NCBI GenBank assembly: GCA_964449865.1
Contig: CAYVBR010000015.1
Span: 173,341-205,340, forward strand
Source: an uncultured Candidatus Nitrosotenuis sp.
GTDB taxonomy: Archaea; Thermoproteota; Nitrososphaeria; Nitrososphaerales; Nitrosopumilaceae
Length of the DNA: 32,000 nt
Reading direction: 5' to 3'
Shown here: one piece after another, positions 1 through 17,666 of the stretch
Layout: each line of letters starts with the position of its first letter
Position numbering within the stretch: position 1 is the stretch's first letter
Made by a program: the position numbers and the translations under genes
Notes under the pieces: generated by a model
Told to the model about the DNA's origin: nothing
Seen by the model: only the letters and a program-made list of their open reading frames with translations
Databases searched by the model: none

Positions 1-2000
1 ACAGACAGATGACTATAGTTCAGGCAAACGTTACTTTGCTTTACGAAAAAGCAGGGCAGGAATACGTCATAAACATGATTGATACTCCAGGCCACATTGA
101 CTTTACGGGAAGGGTAACTCGAAGCCTTAGGGCAATCGATGGCGCTGTGGTAGTATCTGACTCTGTAGAGGGAATCATGACTCAGACTGAAACCGTAACA
201 AGACAAGCACTGGAGGAGCGAGTCCGACCCGTTTTGTATATCAACAAAATCGACCGACTCATAAAAGAGCTAAGGCTTACTCCAGAAAAAATGCAAGAAT
301 GGCTAGTAAACATCATTACCACTTTTAACGGATTAATTGACACATACGCAGAACCCGAATACAAGGAGAAATGGAAGGTCTCAATTCAGGACGGCAGCGT
401 ATCGTTTGGCTCTGCAAAAGACAGGTGGGGCTTTAACATTGATATCATGAAAGAGAAAGGAATTTCATTTAAGGACATTTTCACTGCATATTCAGAAGGC
501 GGAAGCGTAGAAGATCTTGCAAAAAAGGCCCCGCTTGCAGAAGCAGTTCTGGGAATGGTCGTAAAACATCACCCACCACCACACATTGCACAAAAATACA
601 GAATTCCAAAAATCTGGAAAGGTGATCTGGATTCTGATATAGGCAAGGCGCTTTTGAATTGTGACGATACTGGTCCTGCAGTTATGATGATTGTAAACAT
701 GGCAATGGATCCTGCAGCTGGTCCTGTCGCAATAGGTCGACTGTTTGCCGGAACACTTCGAGACGGACAAACCGTAAATCTCATTGATACTAAGCGAGAG
801 GGAAAAATCCAATCTGTCAACTTTTTCATGGGCAACCAAAGAGAAATGGTCGGAGAACTTGGTGCCGGAAACATCCCTGCACTGCTTGGACTTACGGAAG
901 CTAGGGCAGGACAAACACTTTCAACTGTAAAAGAAGTTGCACTGTTTGAGGGAATCAAGTATGTGTCAGAGCCTGTGGTCCAGATAGCAGTCGAGGCGAA
1001 GCATCCAAAGGACTTGCCAAAACTAGTCGAGGCATTGCGAAGAATTACAATTGAAGATCCAAACCTGGTTGTCAAAATCAACGAGGAAAGCGGAGAAACA
1101 GTAATTGCCGGAATGGGCGTCTTGCACCTTGAAATCGCGGCATCCCTAATTGCCGACGCAGGCGTTCAGGTAGTCACATCGCAGCCTTTGATTAATTATA
1201 GAGAAACCATTCTGAGTGGAACTGATGCCGTCATGGCAAAATCGCCAAACAGGCACAACAAGATTTTCATGAGAGTGGAGCCACTTGAGCCAGAAATTGC
1301 AGACATGATACGAAGCGGCCAGCTTTCGGAAATGAAGGACAAAAAAGAAGTGGCTACAATTTTGCGATCAAAGGGCTGGGACTCTGACGTATCAAAGAAC
1401 ATCATGAAATTTGATCCTCGTGGAAATGTTATGATTAACGGAACAAAAGGTGTCCAGTTTATCCAAGAATCAACTGACTCTATCCTGTCTGGATTTGAGG
1501 ATGTGATGAAGGAGGGACCGCTTGCAAAAGAACAAGTGAGAAACTGCAAATTTACATTTACCCACTTTGTACCTCACGAGGACACTGCGCACAGAGGCCT
1601 CTCCCAACTGGGACCGGCGTCAAGACGCGCATGCATGGGTGCCATGCTAAAATCAAGCCCTATCCTGTTGGAGCCTCTTCTTGGAATCGAGGTTCGAGTT
1701 CCGCAAGACATGATCGGAAACGTTGCATCTGTCTTGTCTGGAAAAAGAGGCAAGGTACTTGATATGCAGCAAAAAGGAATCACAAGCATTGTTACTGGCG
1801 AAGTTCCAGCGTCTGAGACATTTGATTTGGCAGAAATAATGAGAGGCCAAACTGCCGGAAAGGCGATGTGGAACACCCACTTTAAGGCCTGGTCGCCAAT
1901 TCCAAAATCAATTCAGGCAACACTGATTGCAGATATCAGAAAGAGAAAGGGTCTAAGTCCAGAACCGCCAACTGCAGACGAGTTCATCGACAAAGAGTAA
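1..2000 (+). CDS. fusA: Translation elongation factor 2 (aEF-2), 5' end cut by window edge (codon phase starts at nt 3)
   Basis: GTPase motifs are present (DTPGHIDF, NKIDR). The diphthamide-site motif HEDTAHRGLSQ is in domain IV. The frame is open to the window start. The stop TAA at 1998..2000 lies inside the target-site duplication of the adjacent element. Confidence 0.95.
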   Translation, partial: RQMTIVQANVTLLYEKAGQEYVINMIDTPGHIDFTGRVTRSLRAIDGAVVVSDSVEGIMTQTETVTRQALEERVRPVLYINKIDRLIKELRLTPEKMQEWLVNIITTFNGLIDTYAEPEYKEKWKVSIQDGSVSFGSAKDRWGFNIDIMKEKGISFKDIFTAYSEGGSVEDLAKKAPLAEAVLGMVVKHHPPPHIAQKYRIPKIWKGDLDSDIGKALLNCDDTGPAVMMIVNMAMDPAAGPVAIGRLFAGTLRDGQTVNLIDTKREGKIQSVNFFMGNQREMVGELGAGNIPALLGLTEARAGQTLSTVKEVALFEGIKYVSEPVVQIAVEAKHPKDLPKLVEALRRITIEDPNLVVKINEESGETVIAGMGVLHLEIAASLIADAGVQVVTSQPLINYRETILSGTDAVMAKSPNRHNKIFMRVEPLEPEIADMIRSGQLSEMKDKKEVATILRSKGWDSDVSKNIMKFDPRGNVMINGTKGVQFIQESTDSILSGFEDVMKEGPLAKEQVRNCKFTFTHFVPHEDTAHRGLSQLGPASRRACMGAMLKSSPILLEPLLGIEVRVPQDMIGNVASVLSGKRGKVLDMQQKGITSIVTGEVPASETFDLAEIMRGQTAGKAMWNTHFKAWSPIPKSIQATLIADIRKRKGLSPEPPTADEFIDKE

Positions 2001-2003
2001 AAA
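1986..2003. repeat. Left copy of direct repeat / target-site duplication (atcgacaaagagtaaaaa)
   Basis: This 18-nt string is identical to 8519..8536. It covers the last four EF-2 codons (ATC GAC AAA GAG) plus the TAA stop. The final 5 A's overlap the first bases of the TIR, so the true TSD is 13-18 bp. Confidence 0.85.
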
Positions 2004-2037
2004 TAGTCACCCCCCTTCTGGTGCGTAAAAATCTGCA
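1999..2037 (+). repeat. Left terminal inverted repeat of casposon (39 bp, imperfect)
   Basis: The sequence is aaaaatagtcaccccccttctggtgcgtaaaaatctgca. The reverse complement of 8480..8518 is aaaaatagtctccccccactttacgcgtaaaaatctgca. About 32 of 39 positions match, with perfect outer 10 bp, a C6 run and an inner 14 bp. Confidence 0.85.
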
Positions 2038-2080
2038 TGAGTATCTTTTGAGAATCAGTCAACGGAATTCCAAAAATCAT

Positions 2081-2189
2081 GCATATAGAATTCTATATGC
2101 GTATTCTATATGCCTAGTTTGCAAATCCTATATGCCCAGATGATCAAACCTATAGGAATTCTATATGCGTGTCCTATATGCCTAGTTTG
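2081..2189. repeat. Subterminal iteron cluster: about seven copies of TYCTATATGC (one inverted, one degenerate), including a perfect 20-bp palindrome and a 34-bp direct repeat
   Basis: The palindrome gcatatagaattctatatgc is at 2081..2100. The 10-mer occurs at 2091, 2104, 2127, 2159 and 2172, plus an inverted copy at 2081 and a degenerate inverted copy at 2149. The 34-bp unit gaattctatatgcgtRtYctatatgcctagtttg is at 2088..2121 and 2156..2189, with 2 mismatches. Confidence 0.8.
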
Positions 2190-2246
2190 AGATTTTGTAG
2201 GTGTCAAAGGTATCAGTTCCAATGTGTGTCGTTTTGATGTGGGTTA

Positions 2247-2864
2247 CTAAAATTGTACAAGATCCAATTTATCGCCATTTTGCATCAACGTGTATTTTTT
2301 AGTGCCAGAGCTTTTTACTGATATCATATCTATGGCATCAAAGAGGATTTTCTTTTCCGCATCCGTTTTGCACAAACCACTGTAGAAATACCAAGCTAGT
2401 CCATCAACCATCATTTCTTCAAGAAAGGCTTTTCGCCATTCTTTTCCAGTCATAATATCCTCAATTTCCTGTTGAGTTTTCTGCTCCGCGTATAAGGGAT
2501 GTGGTAGTAACGATGCCAAAAGTTCCGTGATAGGGTAACTAGTAAATGAGAATTTACCTTTGGGAAGTTCTGCAGTTGTAGTTTTTGTGAGTATGCGTTC
2601 TAACTCCATTTCTGTTAATGCGTCAAAGAGAATTTTAAAATCCAATAGTGCTGACTCTGATTTTGCCCTCACTTCAGAAAAATATTTTGATAAATCTCTA
2701 TTTGTCCTTCGTTCCCATTTCTTCAATCCTGATAGTTTCTCGACTTGGTCTTTAGTCAAAAAGCCGTTTCTTCGTAATTCAAGTCGTTGTTTCGCTTTAT
2801 TCTGTAGTCGTTTCTTTTCATCTTGTGGTATTATTCGTAAATATTTGCGAATTTCATCATCCAT
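2247..2864 (-). CDS. Hypothetical protein, casposon-encoded (205 aa)
   Basis: This is a long ORF with a charged helical N-terminal half. It is divergent from the PolB operon across a 42-bp AT-rich spacer. I recognise no motif. Confidence 0.6.
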   Translation of the reverse strand: MDDEIRKYLRIIPQDEKKRLQNKAKQRLELRRNGFLTKDQVEKLSGLKKWERRTNRDLSKYFSEVRAKSESALLDFKILFDALTEMELERILTKTTTAELPKGKFSFTSYPITELLASLLPHPLYAEQKTQQEIEDIMTGKEWRKAFLEEMMVDGLAWYFYSGLCKTDAEKKILFDAIDMISVKSSGTKKYTLMQNGDKLDLVQF

Positions 2865-2906
2865 TTCGTATGATCAATTATCAATATTTCTAATTTATAT
2901 CATTTT

Positions 2907-3284
2907 ATGAAAAGATTAGAAACACTCAGAAACACGCTACAGAAAATTGATGACGAGATTCTAGACCTAGACAAATTCCGTGACACTCCAACTTTACGTA
3001 AATTCAGGCGTCAGTTGCAAGGAGAAGCAAGCGAAATCAGGGCTAAAATCGCAAAACTGGCAGAAACTCAGGAGCAAAAGAATACAGAACACCAAAAGAT
3101 CCTAGAAAGGGCAAGCAGAAACCGCAGTTCCAAGATGAGGCGAAATTGGAACTATCTACGAGCAATTCAGGCAAACTATTTTCCAAATCTTTCCTTGAAG
3201 GAAATCAGAAAACAGCATAAACTGCACAGGCAAGGTCTTGAATCATCAGTGTCAGACGTGGCTTGGAAAAACCCCAGCCCATGA
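2907..3284 (+). CDS. Hypothetical basic, coiled-coil-rich protein immediately upstream of PolB (125 aa)
   Basis: The ORF is rich in K/R/E/Q. Its TGA stop (3282..3284) overlaps an in-frame PolB ATG at 3281 (ATGA coupling). Confidence 0.6.
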   Translation: MKRLETLRNTLQKIDDEILDLDKFRDTPTLRKFRRQLQGEASEIRAKIAKLAETQEQKNTEHQKILERASRNRSSKMRRNWNYLRAIQANYFPNLSLKEIRKQHKLHRQGLESSVSDVAWKNPSP

Positions 3285-5152
3285 CTCCTTTTTTTCCAGT
3301 GTCAAAATCCAAGATCCTAGATAACATCAGAGTTATCAAACAGAACAGAAACCCAAACAATTCAAAACTGCGCAAAGTCGTTGCAATAGATACGGAGACT
3401 GAAAATGGCAATATTTTTCTCCTAGAGGATGATTCTGGAAGATTCCTAGATCAACACGATATCACGTTTGAAAATGTCGCAAGATTTCTTTTTCGATATG
3501 AGGGAACGTGGGTGTTTTGCTGGAATCTAGGCTATGATGCGATTTGTATTTTGAAACTGCTTCCAAGGCATATTTTGGACTCTTACAAGCACAACAGAAA
3601 ATTAAAGTTCAGATATTCTGGATATGAGATCAACTATATTCCAAACAAGCAACTAACATTACGAAAAGGAAAACATTCTGTCTCATTATACGACATGGCA
3701 CAATATTATGATAAAAAACCTCTTGCAAAGGCATTTTCTGAGAATTTCAATGAAATCTCCAAAGATTATCTGAAAATGAAGGAGTCAAGGCAGGACTTTA
3801 CATTATCACATTACCTGCGACACAAAAAACAGATTCGTGAATATTGCAAAATGGACTGTATTCTGACAAGGAAACTAGCTGAAAAATGGCTTGAAACTTT
3901 TTACAATGCGTTTGGGTTCTATCCAAGAAACTGGGTCAGTTCTGGATATTTGGGTGAAAAAGTGCTCATAAACAACGATATCTTTGTGCCTAGATTCAAC
4001 GAAGTTCCATATTTGGTTCAGGAACAGGCTTGGCTATCTTTCTACGGTGGACGGTTTGAACTGATCAAGCGCGGATTCATTGGCTATTGCTGTCTTTATG
4101 ATATCAATTCTGCATATCCTTTTGCACTGACTCAACTGCCTGATCTGACAAGAGGAAAATGGATTACTTCCAATAACATTCATCCAAAAACCAAAGTCGG
4201 ATTTTTTCACATCATAGCGGACATTAGTAATTCTGTCAAGGTATGTCCATTTCCGTTCCGAAACAAGAACAAGACCATAATCTACCCTTCGGGCAAATTT
4301 GAAACCTTTGTCACATTACATGAATTGTTGACAGTACAAAGAGATCCAAGAATCAAATACAAAATCTTGGAATCATACCAATTCATTCCAAACAAAAATT
4401 GTGGTTATCCATTCAGAGACTTTATTGGAATGATGTATGAGAAAAGGCTTGAATTAAAGAAACGGAATGATCCCCAGCAACAAGCACTCAAATTAATTCT
4501 AAATTCAATGTATGGGAAAACTGCACAGACTACAAATAATAGATTTGGAAACTTGTTCAATCCAGTAATTTCCTCATTTATCACAGGATTTGCAAGGGCA
4601 CAACTGTACCAGTTTGTCAGGGATAATAATTTGGAAAAAAATATAGTTGCATTCGCTACAGACTCTGTTGCAATTCAAAAGAAAATTCCTGATCTGAATA
4701 GTGAAAAGTTAGGAGAAATGAAATTAGACAAGGAATCTAATGATGCATACTATCTCTCAAACGGCTATTATCGGTTTAATGGAATTTGGAAGAATCGTGG
4801 AATCGGTAATGATCCGAGCGAAAAGAATGTCGAGATTGAGCACAAGGACACCATAGAAAACAAGGACGGTCAGTTGTACATAGAGGTAGAAACCACTCAA
4901 TTACAGCATCTGAAAAGTGCCATAATTCGCAATTTGCACAAGGACATAGGCAAGATTCGTACCTATCAAAGGAAGGTTTTCTTGAATTCAGATAGAAAAC
5001 GACTCTGGAATAGGGATCTGGAACGCATTGACGATGGAATATGGTGCGATTCTGCTCCTATTAACATGAGTGTTGACGGTGAGATTATTTCTATACAATC
5101 GGAGTTTGAGTGGATTGATGATGAAAAGTATGTGCCAGAGAGCGATCTTTAA
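3263..5152 (+). CDS. polB: Protein-primed family-B DNA polymerase (pPolB); alternative coupled start at 3281
   Basis: Exonuclease motifs are Exo I AIDTETE, Exo II WNLGYDAICIL and Exo III YCKMDCILT. Polymerase motifs are A (YDINSAYPFAL), B (KLILNSMYGKTAQ) and C (FATDSV). Confidence 0.88.
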   Translation: MEKPQPMTPFFPVSKSKILDNIRVIKQNRNPNNSKLRKVVAIDTETENGNIFLLEDDSGRFLDQHDITFENVARFLFRYEGTWVFCWNLGYDAICILKLLPRHILDSYKHNRKLKFRYSGYEINYIPNKQLTLRKGKHSVSLYDMAQYYDKKPLAKAFSENFNEISKDYLKMKESRQDFTLSHYLRHKKQIREYCKMDCILTRKLAEKWLETFYNAFGFYPRNWVSSGYLGEKVLINNDIFVPRFNEVPYLVQEQAWLSFYGGRFELIKRGFIGYCCLYDINSAYPFALTQLPDLTRGKWITSNNIHPKTKVGFFHIIADISNSVKVCPFPFRNKNKTIIYPSGKFETFVTLHELLTVQRDPRIKYKILESYQFIPNKNCGYPFRDFIGMMYEKRLELKKRNDPQQQALKLILNSMYGKTAQTTNNRFGNLFNPVISSFITGFARAQLYQFVRDNNLEKNIVAFATDSVAIQKKIPDLNSEKLGEMKLDKESNDAYYLSNGYYRFNGIWKNRGIGNDPSEKNVEIEHKDTIENKDGQLYIEVETTQLQHLKSAIIRNLHKDIGKIRTYQRKVFLNSDRKRLWNRDLERIDDGIWCDSAPINMSVDGEIISIQSEFEWIDDEKYVPESDL

Positions 5153-5176
5153 AAAAAACCAACGCTAATAGAAGTC

Positions 5177-6151
5177 ATGTCACAAAGTTGGGTGCATCAA
5201 TCTTGTCACGAAGTTTATAACTATTTGAAAACAATAGTGACACCAACATTACATATAGAAATCTTAGCCAATTCTAAATCTATTTGCACTATAGATGGAA
5301 TCCAAATAACAAACCAACATACACTCACATTAGCAAACTATGATGAAGTTCATGATGAAGTACTACAAGCCTTAAAATATGTTGGTGCGATTCCATTAAA
5401 TTTTTCTTTTATTGATAAAAATTCATTTAGTAAAGTTGAAAAATTAACAATTGCTGAAGATTTTGTGACATGGTACAACACACAGACATCGAAAAAAATG
5501 ATATTCATTGATACCAACATTATGCTACACCGAATTTTTTCATCTCTAGAACTTGCATTAGGTAGTTCTTTAGCTAGTAAAGATTTTGAAATCCCTAGAT
5601 TAACAATTTTAGAAATGGAGAGACAAGCAAATGCAAAAAACAACGAAGGAACATCCACAACTAACCACAAAGTTGGTCTAAAGAAAAGAAAAACATTGTT
5701 AGGATTTAGTGAACTATTATATCTTAAAAACAAAGGTGCTCAACACATGCCAGAACTGCCTTTGGAAACTTTAACTGGATTTAGTAATATTTCTGGAGAT
5801 GGGTTTACTGACGCGTGGATTAGACGAGAAATTAAGGATCGGAGGTTTTTCTTAATGCGTGCAGGTTCTGCTACGTTTCAGCTTTTTTTTACAGCTGATA
5901 TGGTCAACGCACTTTCAGCACTCGCTGAAGGGATTGATACTGTATACATTTCACCAGTACCGGAATGGGAAAAACATATTCAACAAATTAATTTGTCTCA
6001 AATCAGTCAATTGATTTGTTTTTTGGCTACATTACTTAATGACATAACAATAAACGTGAATTCGAACAAATCAAACATTAAAGGATTTTGGAGTGGAATA
6101 ACTACGTCTAACATAATAAATCGAGATATTCTTGTTCAAGCAATACCTTAG
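5177..6151 (+). CDS. Hypothetical protein with PIN-like nuclease signature (324 aa), casposon-encoded
   Basis: Acidic residues are spaced as in PIN domains: MIFIDTNIM, then ILEMERQ, then FTDAWIRREI, then FFTADMVNAL. The ~105-aa N-terminal extension is unrecognised. Confidence 0.6.
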   Translation: MSQSWVHQSCHEVYNYLKTIVTPTLHIEILANSKSICTIDGIQITNQHTLTLANYDEVHDEVLQALKYVGAIPLNFSFIDKNSFSKVEKLTIAEDFVTWYNTQTSKKMIFIDTNIMLHRIFSSLELALGSSLASKDFEIPRLTILEMERQANAKNNEGTSTTNHKVGLKKRKTLLGFSELLYLKNKGAQHMPELPLETLTGFSNISGDGFTDAWIRREIKDRRFFLMRAGSATFQLFFTADMVNALSALAEGIDTVYISPVPEWEKHIQQINLSQISQLICFLATLLNDITINVNSNKSNIKGFWSGITTSNIINRDILVQAIP

Positions 6152-6171
6152 CTAAAAATTTGTGGGAGATC

Positions 6172-6191
6172 TATGAAATGAGAATTTCATA
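6172..6191. terminator. Hairpin between convergent casposon genes (8-bp stem tatgaaat/atttcata, loop gaga)
   Basis: A perfect inverted repeat sits in the 41-bp gap between the 3' ends of the ORFs at 5177..6151 (+) and 6193..6846 (-). A terminator function is inferred only. Confidence 0.3.
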
Positions 6192-6192
6192 A

Positions 6193-6846
6193 CTACAGAT
6201 TTGCCACATCTTTGCAATACTGTTCTGTATCTCCGATATCTTTTCTATTCTCAAATTCATTTTTTAATGCTGTAAAATGTCTTAACGTTTTCTTATTCAA
6301 TTTTTGTCTGGTTTCTATTTCAACTCTTAAGGTTTTCCAATCCCTTACTATCATTTCACCGTACGTATCAAAGAACAACTCTTTGTTAATTAATCCATTC
6401 AATACTAGAACTGACACTTGATCTAACGAAGACAGTACGAGATCTACATTATCTTCCAAATCGTCAGTGTCAACGGCATTTTTAAAAACAATATCTAATT
6501 TTGCTTTTTTCAGTCTACAATATTCGTTATGAATCCGTGTCCTCGCTTTACGAACATCTGCCCTACTCAATAACTCAAAAACTTTTGTAAGAGTATCTTT
6601 TTGCAATTGTTTGTATTTGAAATGATTATTTGTTATTGCGATCATTATTGATGCAATTATTCCAAACCCAGCTAACGCCGCAGCTAATTTCTTATCATAA
6701 GATAACATATTTTCAGGCAATACGACAATAGAGATAGCAAAAAGAACGGCAAGTATGCCGACATTTCTCATATCTTTCTTAAACGCATCTCTAATCTTGG
6801 TAAATCCGTTTGAAAATTCTATGTGTGAGCTTTGTTTCTCTCTCAT
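6193..6846 (-). CDS. Membrane-anchored hypothetical protein (217 aa, two N-terminal TM helices), casposon-encoded
   Basis: The hydrophobic segments are GILAVLFAISIVVL and LAAALAGFGIIASIMIAI. The C-terminal helical domain carries the pattern LDQVSVLVLNGLINKELFFDTYGEMI. Confidence 0.65.
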   Translation of the reverse strand: MREKQSSHIEFSNGFTKIRDAFKKDMRNVGILAVLFAISIVVLPENMLSYDKKLAAALAGFGIIASIMIAITNNHFKYKQLQKDTLTKVFELLSRADVRKARTRIHNEYCRLKKAKLDIVFKNAVDTDDLEDNVDLVLSSLDQVSVLVLNGLINKELFFDTYGEMIVRDWKTLRVEIETRQKLNKKTLRHFTALKNEFENRKDIGDTEQYCKDVANL

Positions 6847-6922
6847 TTACAATCCAGTATTATCATCATCCTATAATTCAACTTGCCTACTGTTACTAAA
6901 CTAAATAGTTACAATATTCTTT

Positions 6923-7972
6923 CTAGGTAGCAATCAAAAAATTATGAATTGTAATTTTTACTATGGTAATTTCCTGACACAATGACATTCCGTTTTCTTT
7001 TTTCAATCCATGTTTGAACTTATACGGTCTTTCAGACTGGAGTTTCCTTTCCAATACTTCCAAAAACCTACGAATCAAATCGGTATCCATCACCACATTT
7101 CCGTCTTTAGTATGGGTGTAATCCTTGAATCTGATTCCATTTCTGTCCAGAATTGAAAATTTGTAAACTGAATGCTCAACAAGCCACCTAAAAGGTTCAA
7201 TCAGATCATACACCAAAGCCTGAAATGAGGTATCTGGTTTGTGATAGAATCCATAGTAAGGATCTAATCCTAAACCGTTGACAAACTTGGCAATCTCTCC
7301 TGCCAAAACGGTATAACCGTAATTCAAAAGGGCATTGATAATATCTGAGGCATAGCGCTTTGAATTGACAAGACCGCCGCCCCGCCTTGACTGAAAACTA
7401 TGTCTTTCTGGAATTAATTTAGCATAGTTTAGAAAATAATACCTTCCACTTCCCGCCTCTATTTTGATCAATTCCTTAAGATTTGTCTTGGAATCAATTT
7501 GGGAATGATATTGCTCTAGTTTTGAAATCCCATCTAGTTCCGGATTTTCTAAAGACTTGAAAAAGTTGATTTGTGCTTGAATCTTTTCCTTTAGAATCCA
7601 TTTTTGTAAATGCAAGACTTTGACAGGATCCCGAAAAGTGTCGTATTGATCCATTCGATATTTTATTGCAGTATTGGAAACCATTCCACCATTCATGAAT
7701 GATACTGGATTGCCGTAAGTATCGGTTAGAATAACGTTGATGTTGTTTTGACTTAGTAATGAAATGGCTTCAGTTGAAACATAGCCTTTTCCAGAAATCA
7801 CGATCTTCTCGTATGGGATTTTAGACACAAACCACTCTTCCTTTTCAGAGATTCCAGTTATGTCATTTTGACCGTTTTTTAGAATCAGATGATTGTCTTT
7901 TACGTTAATTGAGATTCCATAGCCACGAAGGAGTTTTACGTTGTAGTGATTTCGTTGTCCTTTTTCAGTCAT
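6923..7972 (-). CDS. cas1: Cas1-family integrase (casposase), 349 aa
   Basis: Cas1 signature blocks are present: IEAGSGRYYF (catalytic Glu), NALLNYGYTVL, GLDPYYGFYH (catalytic His) and LVYDLIEPFR (catalytic Asp/Glu pair). The N-terminal beta-rich domain has YGISINVKDNHLILKNG. Confidence 0.92.
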   Translation of the reverse strand: MTEKGQRNHYNVKLLRGYGISINVKDNHLILKNGQNDITGISEKEEWFVSKIPYEKIVISGKGYVSTEAISLLSQNNINVILTDTYGNPVSFMNGGMVSNTAIKYRMDQYDTFRDPVKVLHLQKWILKEKIQAQINFFKSLENPELDGISKLEQYHSQIDSKTNLKELIKIEAGSGRYYFLNYAKLIPERHSFQSRRGGGLVNSKRYASDIINALLNYGYTVLAGEIAKFVNGLGLDPYYGFYHKPDTSFQALVYDLIEPFRWLVEHSVYKFSILDRNGIRFKDYTHTKDGNVVMDTDLIRRFLEVLERKLQSERPYKFKHGLKKENGMSLCQEITIVKITIHNFLIAT

Positions 7973-8436
7973 TTTTGTTTATAGTTGGATATTTCTATCC
8001 AAGCTACATCACCGTATTTTTCTTGAGCTTTCTTGATGTATTCAATAACTTCAGTATTTTCTTTAATTAATTGTATGACCCACCCAAATGCTTGTTCTGC
8101 CATCGTTGACGTGAGTGTTCCTTGCTTGATCAAAATAGCTACGGTTTCTACTTCATTTAAAAAATTTTCAAGATCCCTTTCAGTGACGGAATTCTCGCCG
8201 TTTTGCAAAACTTTTTGTTTTAATCGAATCGCTTCAATGATTCTCTTTCCTTCGTCTGATCTGTAGATTGATTCATTCAACCTAAGTAAAAGATCCGCCT
8301 CTGTCGATTTTCTAAATAAATCGAATGAATCTTTAGCTATTTTGTTTGATTTTCGTGTTTGACGATCTGATAGAAATACGCCTAACAAAGCTACAGAGAT
8401 TCCTACAATTGCAGCATAAATTTCCCAATCTGCCAC
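7969..8436 (-). CDS. Membrane-anchored hypothetical protein (155 aa), translationally coupled to cas1
   Basis: The N-terminal TM helix is IYAAIVGISVALLGVFL. The stop overlaps the cas1 ATG (ATGA at 7969..7972). The C-terminal pattern LNEVETVAILIKQGTLTSTMAEQAFGWVI resembles that of the ORF at 6193..6846. Confidence 0.65.
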   Translation of the reverse strand: MADWEIYAAIVGISVALLGVFLSDRQTRKSNKIAKDSFDLFRKSTEADLLLRLNESIYRSDEGKRIIEAIRLKQKVLQNGENSVTERDLENFLNEVETVAILIKQGTLTSTMAEQAFGWVIQLIKENTEVIEYIKKAQEKYGDVAWIEISNYKQK

Positions 8437-8479
8437 GAAATAAGATTACTTTCAGTGTCTAAAAGATTTACGACAGCCC

Positions 8480-8518
8480 TGCAGATTTTTACGCGTAAAG
8501 TGGGGGGAGACTATTTTT
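8480..8518 (-). repeat. Right terminal inverted repeat of casposon
   Basis: Its reverse complement matches 1999..2037 at about 32 of 39 positions. It is followed directly by the right TSD copy. Confidence 0.85.
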
Positions 8519-8536
8519 ATCGACAAAGAGTAAAAA
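8519..8536. repeat. Right copy of direct repeat / target-site duplication
   Basis: The string atcgacaaagagtaaaaa is identical to 1986..2003. It is a non-coding duplicate of the EF-2 terminus. Confidence 0.85.
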
Positions 8537-8907
8537 GACAAGCCCCCTTCATTATGGTAATTCTGTAACTTGATTCATAAAACCAAACGATATGATTGTG
8601 AGGTTCCATCTAATATTTAGTAAAAGAATTTCCAATGCCGAATGAAAGTTGAAGTCGGTATTGATCCACGATTAACAGAAAAAATACTGCAATCTGATCT
8701 CTTGGGGTTCACAGAAAACCGCAGAGTAGTCTTTCTGATGTATATTTGACTGGAGTCGTTTTCACACAATCGTATTTTTCAAATTGAAGATGATCAAAAC
8801 AATATAGATTTTGACAAAACTTGAATTTTTTACCATTGTTTATTGTCGGCAAAGATATTGAGTCGTGTTGACAGCGGTATAAGTTTCATGGATACTTCTA
8901 TTCAACA

Positions 8908-9195
8908 TTATTGATTAATGTCTGAGATAGTTGATGCAAACACCTTTCCGCTTTTAGTCAAGGCAACGTTAATCTTGGAAGACTCTATTTTAGATTCAAC
9001 GAGTCCTTTTTTCTCTAGCCAAACAATGTGTTTTGCAAGTCTCGCGTAATTTAGATTGGCTTCAAGGGACAACTCCGTCTTGCCTTCAGCACCTTTATCT
9101 GCCATAATTTGCATGATACGTGATAGAACAGTCATACTTGGTTTAAAATCAGGTACTGGCTTCTTACTTTCAATGTTTTCTTGTTTTTTTATCAT
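8908..9195 (-). CDS. Small winged-helix DNA-binding protein (95 aa), paralog 1
   Basis: The layout is wHTH-like: LSRIMQIMADKG...LNYARLAKHIVWLEKKGLVES...INVALTKSGK. Residues around 46-80 are identical to the ORF at 11589..11864. Confidence 0.75.
   Translation of the reverse strand: MIKKQENIESKKPVPDFKPSMTVLSRIMQIMADKGAEGKTELSLEANLNYARLAKHIVWLEKKGLVESKIESSKINVALTKSGKVFASTISDINQ
8955..9060 (-). repeat. 106-bp perfect inverted repeat, arm 1 (inside wHTH paralog 1)
   Basis: By my reading, the reverse complement of 8955..9060 equals 11718..11823 exactly. Similarity decays sharply outside the block. Confidence 0.8.
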
Positions 9196-9218
9196 TCACT
9201 AACTTATTGTTAGTAAAG

Positions 9219-9262
9219 CTATTAAGCCACGCTGACATTTGAGTTATGTTCATTGACATGTG
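9219..9262 (-). promoter_or_regulatory. Shared promoter/operator module, copy A (upstream of wHTH paralog 1)
   Basis: The minus strand reads catgtcaatgaacataactcaaatgtcagcgtggcttaatag. The TATA-like ttaatag starts 30 nt before the ATG. About 41 of 49 positions match copy B with identical spacing. Confidence 0.6.
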
Positions 9263-10040: not shown

Positions 10041-10084
10041 GATCTGTCAATGAAACTAACACAAATGTAAGCGCAGCTTAATAG
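10041..10084 (+). promoter_or_regulatory. Shared promoter/operator module, copy B (upstream of the DUF3494-like gene)
   Basis: The sequence is gatctgtcaatgaaactaacacaaatgtaagcgcagcttaatag. The TATA-like box is 29 nt upstream of the ATG at 10107. An imperfect dyad attgatgga|tctgtcaat spans 10034..10051. Confidence 0.6.
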
Positions 10085-10106
10085 ATTTACTAATGATATT
10101 TTTTCA

Positions 10107-11588: not shown

Positions 11589-11864
11589 ATGACACAAATA
11601 AGAATTGAAAGCACAACATTGGATCAGGACTTTGAGCCTAGCATAAAAACTCTGTCACGCATTATGCAAACCCTGACTGATAATGGCTCTGGCGGCAAGA
11701 CTCAGATATCACTTGATGCCAATCTAAATTACGCGAGACTTGCAAAACACATTGTTTGGCTAGAGAAAAAAGGACTCGTTGAATCTAAAATAGAGTCTTC
11801 CAAGATTAACGTTGCCTTGACTAGAAATGGCAAGGTATTTGCATCAATGATTTCAAAAGCGTAG
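11589..11864 (+). CDS. Small winged-helix DNA-binding protein (91 aa), paralog 2
   Basis: The wHTH layout matches the ORF at 8908..9195. The central/C-terminal segment is identical (LNYARLAKHIVWLEKKGLVESKIESSKINVALT) and the N-terminus has diverged. Confidence 0.75.
   Translation: MTQIRIESTTLDQDFEPSIKTLSRIMQTLTDNGSGGKTQISLDANLNYARLAKHIVWLEKKGLVESKIESSKINVALTRNGKVFASMISKA
11718..11823 (+). repeat. 106-bp perfect inverted repeat, arm 2 (inside wHTH paralog 2)
   Basis: It is identical to the reverse complement of 8955..9060. Confidence 0.8.
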
Positions 11865-14282: not shown

Positions 14283-17200
14283 GTGTTTATCAGCCAGTCT
14301 TGGCAAATCAATCTTGGCGTGAATAAACTAATTGTATTGTTACTATCCTCAGTTCTCATCCTGACATCTTTTCACGCTGATGCAAATGCCGCAACCGTTC
14401 CAGATGCCCCGCCAGGACTTACAGTTACTGCCGTATCGCCAACACAGATCAACCTTTTCTGGTCTACCCCAAATGATGGCCAATCAAGTATCACCGGATA
14501 CAAGATAGAATACCGCGTAGGCTCTGGTTCTTACTCCATCTTGGTTGCAAACACTGCCAGCACATCAACTACCTACTCGCACACTGGGCTGACGACTGAT
14601 CAAACCTACACGTATCATGTATATGCAATCAACTCAATTGGGACAAGTGCATCTTCATCGGATGCATCTGCAACTCCAACGTCTACATCTACTGGGACAA
14701 ACCCTGGAGCACCAACCGAACTTTCGGCTGTTCCTGCGTCTCCAACTCAAGTAAACCTGTCCTGGTCTGCCCCGTCAAACAACGGAGGATATCCAATCAC
14801 TGGATACCGAATAGAGTACCGCGTCGGCTCAAGCTCTTACAATACTCTGGCATCAAACACTGCCAGCACATCAACTACATACTCGCACACTGGTCTGACC
14901 ACCGGCCAAGTTTACATTTACCGCGTATTTGCAATTACCTCATTTGGAACTAGTATACTGTCATCCTCTGAGGCAGTGGCACAACCCCAATCGTCATCTG
15001 CACTAGCTGCCCCTGGCGCACCTACTGGCCTTGCGGCAATACCTGTCTCATCAACTCAAGTAAACCTGTCCTGGTCTCCACCGTCAAACAACGGCGGTGC
15101 TGCCGTCACTGGTTACAAAATTGAAGCTAAATCTGGCTCCGGCTCTTATTCTACTCTGGCATCAAACACTGCCAGCACATCAACTACATACTCGCACACT
15201 GGACTTGTGACTGGAACTGCTTACACGTACAAGGTTTCTGCTATCAACTCTGTCGGAACTGGTACTGCATCATCTGAAGTATCTGCAACCCCTACGTCTT
15301 CATCGTCGGCATCTGCTCCGAGCGCACCGACAAGCCTGACTGCGACTAGTGTCTCTTCAACTCAGAACAACCTATCATGGTCTGCCCCGTCAAACAACGG
15401 CGGCTATCCGATCACCGGATACAAAATAGAATACCGCATAGGCTCCGGCTCTTACTCTGTCTTGGTTGCAAACACTGCCAGCACATCAACTGCATACTCG
15501 CACACCGGATTAAGCGCTGGACAAACCTATGTTTACCGCGTTTCTGCAATTAATTCAATTGGAACCGGAAGCGCATCTGCAGAATCTTCTACTACTCCGT
15601 CTTCATCAAGCATCCCGAGTGCACCAACTGGATTTACTGCCACTACGGCGTCTCCAACTCAGATAAACCTGTCCTGGTCTCCACCGTCAAACAACGGCGG
15701 CACTGCCGTCACTGGTTACAAAATTGAGGCAAAGAAAGGCTCCGGCTCTTATGAAACACTGGTATCAAACACACAAAGTTCTGCAACGTCATTTGTCCAC
15801 ACTGGATTGACAAAAGGCACCATCTATTATTACCGCGTTTCTGCAATCAATTCAGCTGGAACTGGCCCTTCAAGCGATGCGTCTGCAACGCCTCAAGAAA
15901 CAACAGCGCCTGCACTTACCGCGACAGCTGTGTCTCCAACTGCGATTACTTTGACATGGGTTCCGCCGTCACAAACATACAAGCAACAAATCACCGGCTA
16001 CAAGATAGACGAAAAAATAGGCTCGGACTCATACAAGATCATAATTGAGAACACTGGTTCTACCGCAACGACCTATTCCATCACCGGACTTACAACTGGG
16101 AAATTACACACCTATGTTGTCTCAGCTTACTTTACTCTGGGCGGAAGCCCAATTTCAAACGAGGCATCTGCAACACCACTTGCCACCTCGACTCCACCGC
16201 AATCCCAGTCAAACACAAATCCTCCTGGAACGCCGACTGGCCTTGTCGCAACGGCAGCATCTCCAACAAAAATTAACCTGTCCTGGTCTGCCCCGTCAAA
16301 CACTGGCGGCTCTTCCATAACTGGATATAAAATCGAGGTAAAGAAGAACCAGGGCCAATTTGAAACACTCACGTCTAGCACCCAAAACTCTACTACGAAA
16401 TACTCGCATACCGGCCTAACAACTGGTGATGCCTATGCCTACAGAGTTTATGCGATTAACTCAGTTGGAATAAGTTCATCATCCTCTGAGGCATCTGCAA
16501 CACCGTCTGCAGTTTCTGCACACGCGCCTAGTGCACCAATCCTTACTATCACTCACAATACAAATCAGGCAAATCTCTTGTGGTCTGCTCCCTCAAATGA
16601 TGGCGGGGCACCAATCACCGGATACAAGATAGAATACAAAATTGGTTTTGGTTCCTACATGACTTTGATTAACAAGGCAACTGGCACTTCATATTCCCAC
16701 ACTGGATTGTTGGCAAACACCTATTCTTACAGGGTCTATGCGATCAACTCTGCTGGGGCAAGCTCCCCGTCAAACGAGATTTCCGTTGTGATTGCAGCAC
16801 CAACAAAGCCCACGACGCCTACCATTCCAGAGGAGCCTGAGACTCCAGAAGAGCCTGAAACGCCTACTGAAGAGCCGGAAACCCCAAAAACACACATTCC
16901 TGGATTCCCAGACCCTTCACGAGACCCACAATATTACGTGGATAGATACCAAAACGAGCCTGAATTTACGGCATGGTTTGACAAAAACTTCCCAGGTGAA
17001 TCAATCTATGATGTGGTGGGAGCAGTTGACCCTAACAAAAAGGAGATAATCACGACACACATTCCTGGATTCCCGGATCCTGCCAAGGACTCTGAATACT
17101 ACATTTACCTATACAAAAACGAACCATCGTTCAAAACGTGGTTTGATGAAAACTTCAAAGGCCAAACAATCTATGCGCTATTCAAAGTACCGGAGCCGAC

Positions 17201-17666
17201 TCTTGACACTACAAAATGTGGAGCTGGAACTCATCTTGATGGCGGGGTCTGCGTACTTGATGCGGCAAAAGGCGGCGGATGCCTCATTGCAACTGCAGCA
17301 TATGGGACTGAACTATCCTCCCAAGTGCAGCAACTGCGAGAAGTACGCGACAACGTCTTACTAAACACTGAATCTGGAACCATTTTCATGACTGGGTTCA
17401 ACCAGTTTTACTATTCGTTTAGCCCAACTGTGGCAGATTTGGAGCGACAGAGCCCTATTTTCAAAGAAATTGTAAAGATCACCATATCTCCAATGCTTTT
17501 TACACTGCAGATTCTCAATAATGTGGATTCTGAATCTGAAGTGGCATGGTATGGGCTGGGAATAATCCTGCTTAATGCCGGAATCTATCTTGGAATTCCA
17601 GCTTTTTCTATCTTGACCATAAAAAATGGATCAAAAATCAGAAACTTTGTGTCCAAAAGGCAATAA
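14283..17666 (+). CDS. Large secreted surface protein with 8 fibronectin type III repeats, a PE-rich linker, a duplicated HIPGFPDP module and a C-terminal Cys motif plus TM anchor. The likely start is GTG at 14319.
   Basis: The signal peptide NKLIVLLLSSVLILTSFHADANA follows the GTG at 14319. Eight ~96-aa units each contain P-x-AP...LSWS-x-PSNNGG-x-ITGYKIEY...YSHTGL...Y-x-YRV-x-AIN. The linker is PEEPETPEEPETPTEEPETP. The C-terminus has GGGCLIATAAYGTE and a hydrophobic tail. Confidence 0.85.
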   Translation: MFISQSWQINLGVNKLIVLLLSSVLILTSFHADANAATVPDAPPGLTVTAVSPTQINLFWSTPNDGQSSITGYKIEYRVGSGSYSILVANTASTSTTYSHTGLTTDQTYTYHVYAINSIGTSASSSDASATPTSTSTGTNPGAPTELSAVPASPTQVNLSWSAPSNNGGYPITGYRIEYRVGSSSYNTLASNTASTSTTYSHTGLTTGQVYIYRVFAITSFGTSILSSSEAVAQPQSSSALAAPGAPTGLAAIPVSSTQVNLSWSPPSNNGGAAVTGYKIEAKSGSGSYSTLASNTASTSTTYSHTGLVTGTAYTYKVSAINSVGTGTASSEVSATPTSSSSASAPSAPTSLTATSVSSTQNNLSWSAPSNNGGYPITGYKIEYRIGSGSYSVLVANTASTSTAYSHTGLSAGQTYVYRVSAINSIGTGSASAESSTTPSSSSIPSAPTGFTATTASPTQINLSWSPPSNNGGTAVTGYKIEAKKGSGSYETLVSNTQSSATSFVHTGLTKGTIYYYRVSAINSAGTGPSSDASATPQETTAPALTATAVSPTAITLTWVPPSQTYKQQITGYKIDEKIGSDSYKIIIENTGSTATTYSITGLTTGKLHTYVVSAYFTLGGSPISNEASATPLATSTPPQSQSNTNPPGTPTGLVATAASPTKINLSWSAPSNTGGSSITGYKIEVKKNQGQFETLTSSTQNSTTKYSHTGLTTGDAYAYRVYAINSVGISSSSSEASATPSAVSAHAPSAPILTITHNTNQANLLWSAPSNDGGAPITGYKIEYKIGFGSYMTLINKATGTSYSHTGLLANTYSYRVYAINSAGASSPSNEISVVIAAPTKPTTPTIPEEPETPEEPETPTEEPETPKTHIPGFPDPSRDPQYYVDRYQNEPEFTAWFDKNFPGESIYDVVGAVDPNKKEIITTHIPGFPDPAKDSEYYIYLYKNEPSFKTWFDENFKGQTIYALFKVPEPTLDTTKCGAGTHLDGGVCVLDAAKGGGCLIATAAYGTELSSQVQQLREVRDNVLLNTESGTIFMTGFNQFYYSFSPTVADLERQSPIFKEIVKITISPMLFTLQILNNVDSESEVAWYGLGIILLNAGIYLGIPAFSILTIKNGSKIRNFVSKRQ
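14394..16795 (+). repeat. Tandem ~288-bp coding repeats (FN3 units) with long near-identical DNA stretches
   Basis: For example, aacactgccagcacatcaactacMtactcgcacacYgg recurs in units 1-4. The stretch ccgtcaaacaacggcgg recurs in units 2-5. Confidence 0.8.

Follow-up and report, generated by a model that had tools for sequence, protein, structure and literature searches.

Casposons of family 1 have been described in thaumarchaea (NitAR1-C1/NitSJ-C1, NitAR2-C1, NitNF5-C1/C2, NitDev and NitEve-C1; Krupovic 2014, 2019). This family is recognised by a Cas1 encoded outside a CRISPR-Cas locus, a protein-primed DNA polymerase (pPolB), terminal inverted repeats (TIRs) together with a target-site duplication (TSD), a compact casposase and a small gene upstream of polB. 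Casposons do not carry Cas2, and the Cas1 of family 1 is compact and free of additional domains (PMC4046053, PMC6563490). The most frequent target of the thaumarchaeal family 1 elements is the EF-2 gene (PMC6563490). For the N. koreensis element the TSD was defined by experiment as ATTGATAAAGAGT at the 3' end of EF-2, with its positions A1, A11 and T13 reported to be essential, and the purified casposase integrates site-specifically in vitro without any partner (PMC8464041). Here we analysed a 32-kb stretch of DNA from an uncultured Candidatus Nitrosotenuis sp. (henceforth the window, by which we mean the whole stretch and in whose positions coordinates are given), focusing on a cas1 gene that is coupled to a gene for a 155-aa membrane-anchored protein of the Pfam family DUF4760. 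A sequence-only reading of this locus had implied that the membrane protein stands in for the missing Cas2 as a partner of Cas1. We found that the locus is an intact family 1 casposon, and we consider it likely that its casposase is autonomous and that the 155-aa gene is lineage-specific passenger cargo occupying a variable slot of the element.

The casposon spans positions 1999-8518 (6520 bp), lies at the 3' end of EF-2 in a thaumarchaeal (Nitrosopumilaceae-type) genome and holds seven genes between its repeats. The insertion target, EF-2 (9-2000, plus strand; Pfam domains GTP_EFTU, EFG_II-IV and EFG_C), has its N-terminus cut off by the window. Two plus-strand copies of the 13-bp sequence ATCGACAAAGAGT, read directly at 1986-1998 and, just outside the right TIR, at 8519-8531, form a direct repeat identical at 13/13 positions, and this TSD equals that of N. 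koreensis at 11 of 13 positions, including A1, A11 and T13. The EF-2 stop codon (1998-2000) straddles the junction, with T1998 as the final TSD base and A1999-A2000 as the first bases of the element; the duplicated target copy likewise reads TAA at 8531-8533. An inverted-repeat search paired 1998-2037 with 8480-8519 (40 nt, 83% complementary), giving TIRs of 39-40 nt: the left one (1999-2037, plus strand) begins with AAAAATAGTCACCCCCC and follows the AAAAAT-N5-CCCCC pattern of the published NitAR1-C1 and NitNF5 TIRs, and the right one (8480-8518, minus strand) was also read in the sequence. Between them lies an intact 629-aa pPolB (3263-5152, plus strand; Pfam DNA_pol_B_2, PF03175, E=3.1e-24) with orthologues in other family 1 loci. 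Directly upstream of polB is a conserved casposon gene of 125 aa (2907-3284, plus strand), homologues of which we found immediately upstream of PolB in nine loci (L019, L038, L042, L026, L028, L029, L031, L035 and L041); the gene at this position was proposed to encode a terminal protein by Krupovic 2014 (PMC4046053). Because the TIRs, the perfect TSD, pPolB, Cas1, the pre-polB gene and the EF-2 target are all present, we identified the element as a casposon, and with these genes between its repeats it therefore fits the published definition of family 1 (PMC4046053; PMC6563490). Identical copies of the element at EF-2 are found in at least 10 public contigs, with sequencing runs SRR13076554 and SRR14271354 among their sources.

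The casposase itself (349 aa; 6923-7972, minus strand) contains a single Pfam domain (Cas_Cas1, E=9.5e-50, aa 18-308), with no helix-turn-helix (HTH), Zn-binding or other added domain. Its start codon is correctly placed, as the N-terminus MTEKGQRNHYNVKLLRGYG (MTxKG.RNHYN) aligns from residue 1 with homologues. We found 998 relatives at E<1e-30, of which the named ones are thaumarchaeal (Nitrosarchaeum, Nitrosopumilaceae, Nitrososphaera), and residues E172, H244, D256 and E259 are invariant in an alignment of 15 family 1 casposases. Among solved structures, the M. mazei casposase 6opm is its nearest relative in sequence (E=1.1e-30, aa 11-318). Structural comparison was carried out by sequence alignment to 6opm and 4n06, since the AlphaFold2 (AF2) model, for which 15 sequences had been aligned, was of insufficient quality (pLDDT 53.5). 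Scans with Pfam, PADLOC and NCBIfam detected neither a Cas2-like open reading frame (ORF) nor any other cas gene among the seven genes of the element, in which no unassigned ORF of fitting size is left, and a tandem repeat scan of the 32-kb window found no CRISPR array; an Rfam scan was also without a match. The sequence-only reading was thus right to describe a solo Cas1 without Cas2 in a TIR-bounded element, and the profile search that it had named as its refuting test, for a small cas2-like ORF within the element, yielded none. This solo state, however surprising at first sight, is the defining and already published state of casposons and needs no new explanation: in this respect the element is an ordinary casposon. 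The enzyme would be expected to integrate the element alone, like its N. koreensis counterpart, an expectation to which the matching TSD lends indirect support.

A "~60-aa basic tail" after the catalytic core had also been described and suggested as a DNA-binding extension. With the Pfam match extending to aa 308 and that of TIGR00287 to aa 318, the actual tail measures 31-41 aa; it is only moderately basic (net charge ~+5). Seven of its positions (R315, G322, G328, Q333, E334, T336 and K339) are invariant in the 15 family 1 casposases, and A. fulgidus Cas1 (4n06) has a comparable unaligned C-terminal segment, its alignment stopping at residue 313 of 347. We thus found no support for a special extension in a tail that is conserved within family 1 and similar in length to that of a canonical Cas1.

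Turning to the gene in front of cas1, the minus strand reads ...AAACAAAAATGACTGAAAAAGG..., such that the 155-aa gene, ending in TGA, runs 4 nt into cas1, which starts with ATG (junction AAAAATGACT, i.e., ATGA at 7972-7969). The 155-aa gene (7969-8436, minus strand; Pfam DUF4760, 27.4 bits against a cut-off of 25) is the first gene of the operon. From its GTG start it is 43 nt to the inner edge of the right TIR and 82 nt to the end of the element. Direct reading thus bore out what had been noted about this gene pair, namely its tight coupling with cas1 in second place, the ATGA overlap and a start some 45 bp inside the TIR. The description as a single-pass membrane protein agrees with the one predicted N-terminal membrane helix (aa ~3-22), which is followed by the basic stretch RQTRKSNK and which, by the positive-inside rule, would be oriented N-out/C-in. 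An AF2 model of the protein (mean pLDDT 83.5) is all-helical, with a long N-terminal helix (residues 3-57) and a compact helical bundle, and gave one unnamed viral match. Comparison with homologues yielded a ratio of nonsynonymous to synonymous substitution rates (dN/dS) of 0.046-0.066 at dS 1.0-1.7, where synonymous sites are nearly saturated; given a ratio of about 0.05, the ORF is a real gene under strong purifying selection. Relatives are few (at E<=1e-3, 8 in an index of 5.8 billion proteins and, in a profile search of 1.84 billion cluster representatives, 155), meaning that the protein represents a rare, divergent subfamily of DUF4760. IMG/VR contains no relatives, and tblastn found no match for the 155-aa protein in phage records or for the element's other DUF4760 protein in plasmid records. 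That second protein (217 aa; 6193-6846, minus strand; Pfam DUF4760, E=5.5e-12, 46.5 bits) is encoded 76 nt downstream of cas1, has two predicted transmembrane (TM) helices at aa 25 and 52, and shares 28% identity with the 155-aa protein across 88 aa.

To see how the gene pair fares in related elements, we combined a casposase-profile scan of GTDB species representatives (~25 family 1 loci, casposase identity 42-86%) with contig look-ups, which added six elements whose casposases are 85-90% identical to that of the window. We found that a same-strand gene upstream of cas1 ends within 22 nt of the cas1 start in 19 of the 21 distinct family 1 loci that have one, eight of them with the identical 4-nt overlap. 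These slot genes fall into at least 13 mutually unrelated groups, among them HNH nucleases (L020, L105/L106, L108), a group with a HEQxHFD motif (L027, L036, L111/L112), small 2-TM proteins (L029, L104) and multi-TM proteins (L028, L040), with singletons among the remainder. Even among the six elements with 85-90% identical casposases the occupant varies, being an HNH protein, a 2-TM protein of 92 aa or a protein of 51 aa or of 221/245 aa, while the slot may also lack a gene on the cas1 strand. The same layout can be seen in published elements: NitAR1-C1 is arranged as EF-2, a 166-aa hypothetical protein and Cas1, and in NitAR2-C1 a 164-aa arCOG06953 protein abuts Cas1. As the slot is commonly filled and its occupant coupled, by genes unrelated to one another, the coupled-pair architecture is generic in family 1 casposons and the identity of the first gene is not. 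Specifically, when ~30 other family 1 loci were searched with phmmer and with a family HMM built from ~150 relatives, none proved to have a DUF4760-type gene in front of cas1 (in L040, a gene similar to that for the 217-aa protein lies 3 kb from cas1).

Variability of the slot is accompanied by conservation of the sequence in front of it. We aligned the region from the TSD to the first start codon in ten loci, of which L020 was unalignable and was excluded, and found a terminal module of ~82 nt conserved in the remaining nine elements. All nine termini share the same order, i.e., AAAAAT-N5-CCCCC, then ...AAAATCTGC..., then GTCGTAAA-N-CTTTTAG, and the CGTAA and TT positions of the motif are invariant or nearly so. 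In eight of the nine, 21-24 nt separate GTCGTAAA-N-CTTTTAG from a GTG, TTG or ATG start; the ninth (L109, with a 51-aa first gene) shares the terminal motifs and has a longer spacer. The module precedes six different first genes, and those in the aligned set encode DUF4760 proteins (three), an HNH protein, the HEQxHFD protein, a 2-TM protein and unknowns of 162 aa and 302 aa. In the window the motif reads GTCGTAAATCTTTTAGA (8458-8474, minus strand) and ends 21 nt upstream of the GTG start, a position that would fit an archaeal BRE/TATA element and a leaderless mRNA beginning at the first start codon. Because the motif is both conserved and suitably spaced, the suggestion that transcription starts next to the TIR gains support and appears very probable.

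Close homologues of the 155-aa protein (85-86% identity) were found in only a few loci (L007/L008 and L014-L017), for which gene calling at L007 and L014 reported no cas1. Nucleotide alignment nonetheless placed a casposon TIR upstream of the 155-aa homologue in both L007 and L014 (that of L007 resembling the published NitNF5-C1 TIR), and showed both sequences to run past the 155-aa stop into a cas1 start through an ATGA or GTGA overlap. These casposon remnants, each made up of TIR, 155-aa homologue and decayed cas1, lie at L007:2500-3300 and L014:1830-2560. In the cas1 of L007, an internal deletion has brought residues 1-44, with a stop in frame, directly before the final ~25 residues; in L014 cas1 comprises 47 residues followed by a stop. 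The 155-aa gene is full length in L007/L008 and L014-L017 beside these cas1 stubs of 44-47 codons, and the fact that selection has kept it where cas1 is dead argues that its function is independent of the casposase. L007 retains the order TIR, 155-aa gene, cas1 remnant and second DUF4760 gene, the last encoding 177 aa with only 24% identity to the 217-aa protein of the window; a tyrosine integrase and Topo IB lie upstream. L014, on a 3.1-kb contig, has EF-2 upstream and a convergent Holliday-junction-resolvase-like gene downstream. We conclude from the sequence comparison that the ancestor of this small sub-lineage already had the 155-aa/cas1 pair. Relatives of the 155-aa protein at a greater distance (37-55% identity; L001-L006, L098-L103) are found next to transposases, integrases, a ParB-methyltransferase, a KAP NTPase, a STAND-like NTPase and TPR/SHOCT genes, and no cas1 was detected in their fetched flanks (by phmmer for L098-L103, and by the absence of a Cas_Cas1 call for L001-L006). 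As a separate observation, the sequence bordering the L007 TIR on its left (ATAGATAATCAGC) is similar to the 13-mer targeted in EF-2, though its neighbours are the tyrosine integrase and Topo IB.

The arrangement that we favour would work as follows. The casposase would integrate the element by itself as a homo-oligomer, making Cas2 unnecessary, and the conserved motif in the last ~82 nt, beside the TIR, would probably drive a leaderless transcript from the first start codon. The position between TIR and cas1 is a hypervariable cargo slot, and translational coupling to cas1 is the rule for its occupants. Here it is filled by the gene for the 155-aa DUF4760 protein, predicted to consist of an N-out/C-in anchor and a cytosolic helical bundle, with a second, divergent DUF4760 gene just downstream of cas1, and the 155-aa gene would be coupled to cas1 simply through its position. 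What the cargo does is a more tentative matter: a role in conflict, either among mobile elements or between element and host (exclusion, defence or addiction), is the most plausible guess, yet one we hold with considerable reserve, and we make it because sister casposons carry TIR-domain (the protein domain), HEPN, Bub-type, NERD and OLD genes and because the family occurs in genomic islands. A decidedly unlikely extension is that the slot acts as a cassette site, in which the conserved terminal promoter and the cas1 start would frame swapped, mutually unrelated genes, close to half of them for membrane proteins and others for nucleases. Their products, made in a fixed ratio to the casposase, might modulate transposition or exclude rivals, and DUF4760 proteins would then form a new class of conflict or regulatory factor carried by casposons and open to domestication once the casposase is lost.

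The proposal that the membrane protein is a dedicated casposase accessory, whether as Cas2 substitute, membrane tether or transposition regulator held at a fixed ratio by translational coupling, draws on the 4-nt ATGA overlap, on the retention of the same junction in L007 and L014 and on the recurrence of predicted membrane proteins in the slot (~9 of 19 elements). It is nevertheless very improbable, given that a DUF4760-type gene before cas1 is missing from ~30 other family 1 loci, even where the casposases are 85-90% identical, that slot occupants are mutually unrelated, that purifying selection has preserved the 155-aa gene next to decayed copies of cas1, that in vitro a casposase of family 1 needs no partner for activity (PMC8464041), and that an all-helical TM protein is unlike the ferredoxin fold of Cas2. 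The sequence-only reading had itself called for a survey of the gene in related elements, and this survey found it absent save for the two sister elements (L007 and L014); the idea of a partner thus fails its own test outside one small sub-lineage. The shared coupling could also be read to mean that the upstream ORF is a mere translated leader which sets casposase expression, its product being irrelevant. Coupling is indeed common at the slot whatever the gene, and some slot ORFs are very short (e.g., 51 aa in L109), but a dN/dS of about 0.05 with near-saturated synonymous sites indicates selection on the protein, the family has conserved motifs and is also found outside casposons, and the gene is retained where cas1 is dead, so we regard the chance of a mere leader as next to negligible. 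It is unlikely, if less strained, that the DUF4760 proteins of 155 and 217 aa work together as a membrane toxin/immunity, addiction or superinfection-exclusion pair that stabilises the casposon and outlives its casposase. Both proteins flank cas1, L007 shows the same order, the first gene is 85% conserved and the second 24% identical (a conserved-plus-diversifying pattern), and the module persists after the loss of cas1; yet no toxin or enzymatic domain was found by Pfam, PADLOC, NCBIfam or PHROG scans, the cas1 stub of L014 is followed on its 3.1-kb contig by the resolvase-like gene rather than by DUF4760, and the distant relatives of the 155-aa protein have no second DUF4760 gene nearby.

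Several points weigh against passenger cargo and an autonomous casposase as we have set them out. The ATGA junction of the 155-aa gene and cas1 is kept in three diverged lineages, and ~9 of 19 slot genes encode predicted membrane proteins, which leaves room for a regulatory or physical link between slot protein and casposase. A conflict or defence role of DUF4760 is argued from gene neighbourhood; a PHROG search gave no match for the DUF4760 proteins, and the AF2 model of the 155-aa protein has no significant PDB fold match by Foldseek. A weak PADLOC match to BrxA of BREX systems (19 bits, 2.5e-4) was rejected, as neither PDB sequence searches nor Foldseek supported it. The TM predictions come from a crude hydropathy window, and the putative promoter and leaderless start are argued from conservation and spacing; a sigma-70-type promoter scan was uninformative, as scans of this kind do not apply to archaea.

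Placed beside the published family 1 elements, the casposon shares with them an HTH-free casposase, pPolB with a small upstream gene, AAAAAT-N5-CCCCC TIRs, element-specific cargo, insertion at the 3' end of EF-2 with a ATYGAYAAAGAGT target duplication, and a small gene abutting cas1 on its TIR-proximal side. By contrast, it is smaller (6.5 kb compared to 8.2-19 kb in the four published family 1 elements for which coordinates were obtained), its slot gene and second cargo gene are both DUF4760, and it carries a PIN-like 324-aa cargo protein. The term DUF4760/PF15956 is absent from the supplements of Krupovic 2019, and DUF4760 and PIN-like cargo are not mentioned in the casposon papers that we searched. 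The family 2 casposases of M. mazei and A. boonei (6opm) are the closest solved sequence relatives, and the same casposase function would be expected of both families. Unlike the window Cas1, which ends ~31 aa past the shared core with a tail too short for the family 2 HTH, they have a C-terminal HTH (431 aa in 6opm), and unlike the window element theirs have an RNA-primed-type PolB and mostly tRNA targets. With CRISPR-Cas adaptation modules the element shares a homologous Cas1 core with invariant E/H/D residues and a short target duplication analogous to repeat duplication; it differs in having no Cas2, array or other cas genes, in being TIR-bounded with its own polymerase, and in that the coupled neighbour of Cas1 is an all-helical membrane protein rather than a Cas2 fold. 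Finally, both neighbours of cas1 score above the gathering threshold of Pfam DUF4760 (PF15956) and share with this family an N-terminal TM helix and a helical domain. The one published mention of DUF4760 likewise places it in a genomic island beside integrases (PMC9964261); in the window the 155-aa protein is tied to a casposon terminus.

Two aspects of the locus are mildly new. One is the combination of a conserved promoter-like module with a variable coupled slot, which is visible even among casposases that are 85-90% identical; the other is a DUF4760 slot gene that remains under strong purifying selection after decay of the casposase, i.e., cargo that has apparently outlived its transposon. 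Together they provide a testable handle both on the uncharacterised DUF4760 family and on the acquisition of cargo by casposons.

The remaining genes of the element are specific to it. A 205-aa gene (2247-2864, minus strand; ORF call) has no family match, and its lone weak relative in other loci is in L038. The 324-aa cargo protein (5177-6151, plus strand) has a PIN-like C-terminal region (PADLOC CARF_m1--CARF_PIN, E=6.5e-9, aa 90-320); it belongs to no Pfam, NCBIfam or PHROG family, and none of the other casposon loci fetched contains a homologue. The left subterminal region holds six copies, one of them inverted, of the 10-mer T(T/C)CTATATGC (2081-2181), of which the right end has none. The window contains seven matches to this 10-mer, compared to 1.27 expected, and none of 100 shuffles reached seven. 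The cluster is a candidate set of binding sites for a replication or regulatory protein, or of replication-origin repeats.

Other cargo was observed in the casposons with 85-90% identical casposases: a Multi_ubiq/ThiF/BubE set, i.e., a Bub-type ubiquitin-like system (L104:15250-17013), DUF5343 with HEPN_Swt1 and a 521-aa TIR_2 protein (L108:3427-4618 and 7332-8897), a TIR-domain protein (L111:8113-8529) and a NERD nuclease (L109:7176-7883). Published casposons carry OLD, HEPN and Cas4 genes (PMC6563490). Family 1 casposons occur at the 3' end of EF-2 in both orientations (L105:1288-5074 and L111:3307-7413 compared to window 9-8531 and L104), with the cas1 end adjoining EF-2 in L105, L111, L019, L037 and L109, and the polB end in the window and L104. 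In L042 (7814-11089), two family 1 casposase genes lie head to head ~1.1 kb apart, and upstream of each, in the same orientation, is a gene for a predicted membrane protein, a different one in either case (141 aa, 1 TM; 157 aa, 4 TM); possibly two casposons have inserted here end to end. Casposases of family 1 type (46-66% identical to that of the window) were also found on short contigs binned as bacterial, namely L032 (a Chitinophaga sp. metagenome-assembled genome) and P0094 (Rhabdochlamydiaceae), which are more likely to be mis-binned thaumarchaeal contigs than bacterial family 1 casposons.

Just outside the casposon, the window contains a 228-nt inverted repeat (8923-9150 and 11628-11855, 84% complementary; also 9205-9258 and 10045-10098), formed by a pair of paralogous winged-helix (HTH_45) genes in inverted orientation. 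On the 2.5 kb between these genes are encoded a membrane protein resembling M50 and a protein of 303 aa whose repeat tail is rich in His, Asp and Lys. Five loci (L009-L013), counted from the first base of their contigs, all begin within this repeat, at a distance of ~548 nt upstream from the 155-aa gene. Further along, at 14283-17666, a 306-nt unit is repeated in tandem ~3.3 times (71% matches) within an ORF of 1127 aa. This ORF lies where GC content is elevated (0.46-0.50) and GC skew strongly negative, and probably encodes a repetitive surface protein.

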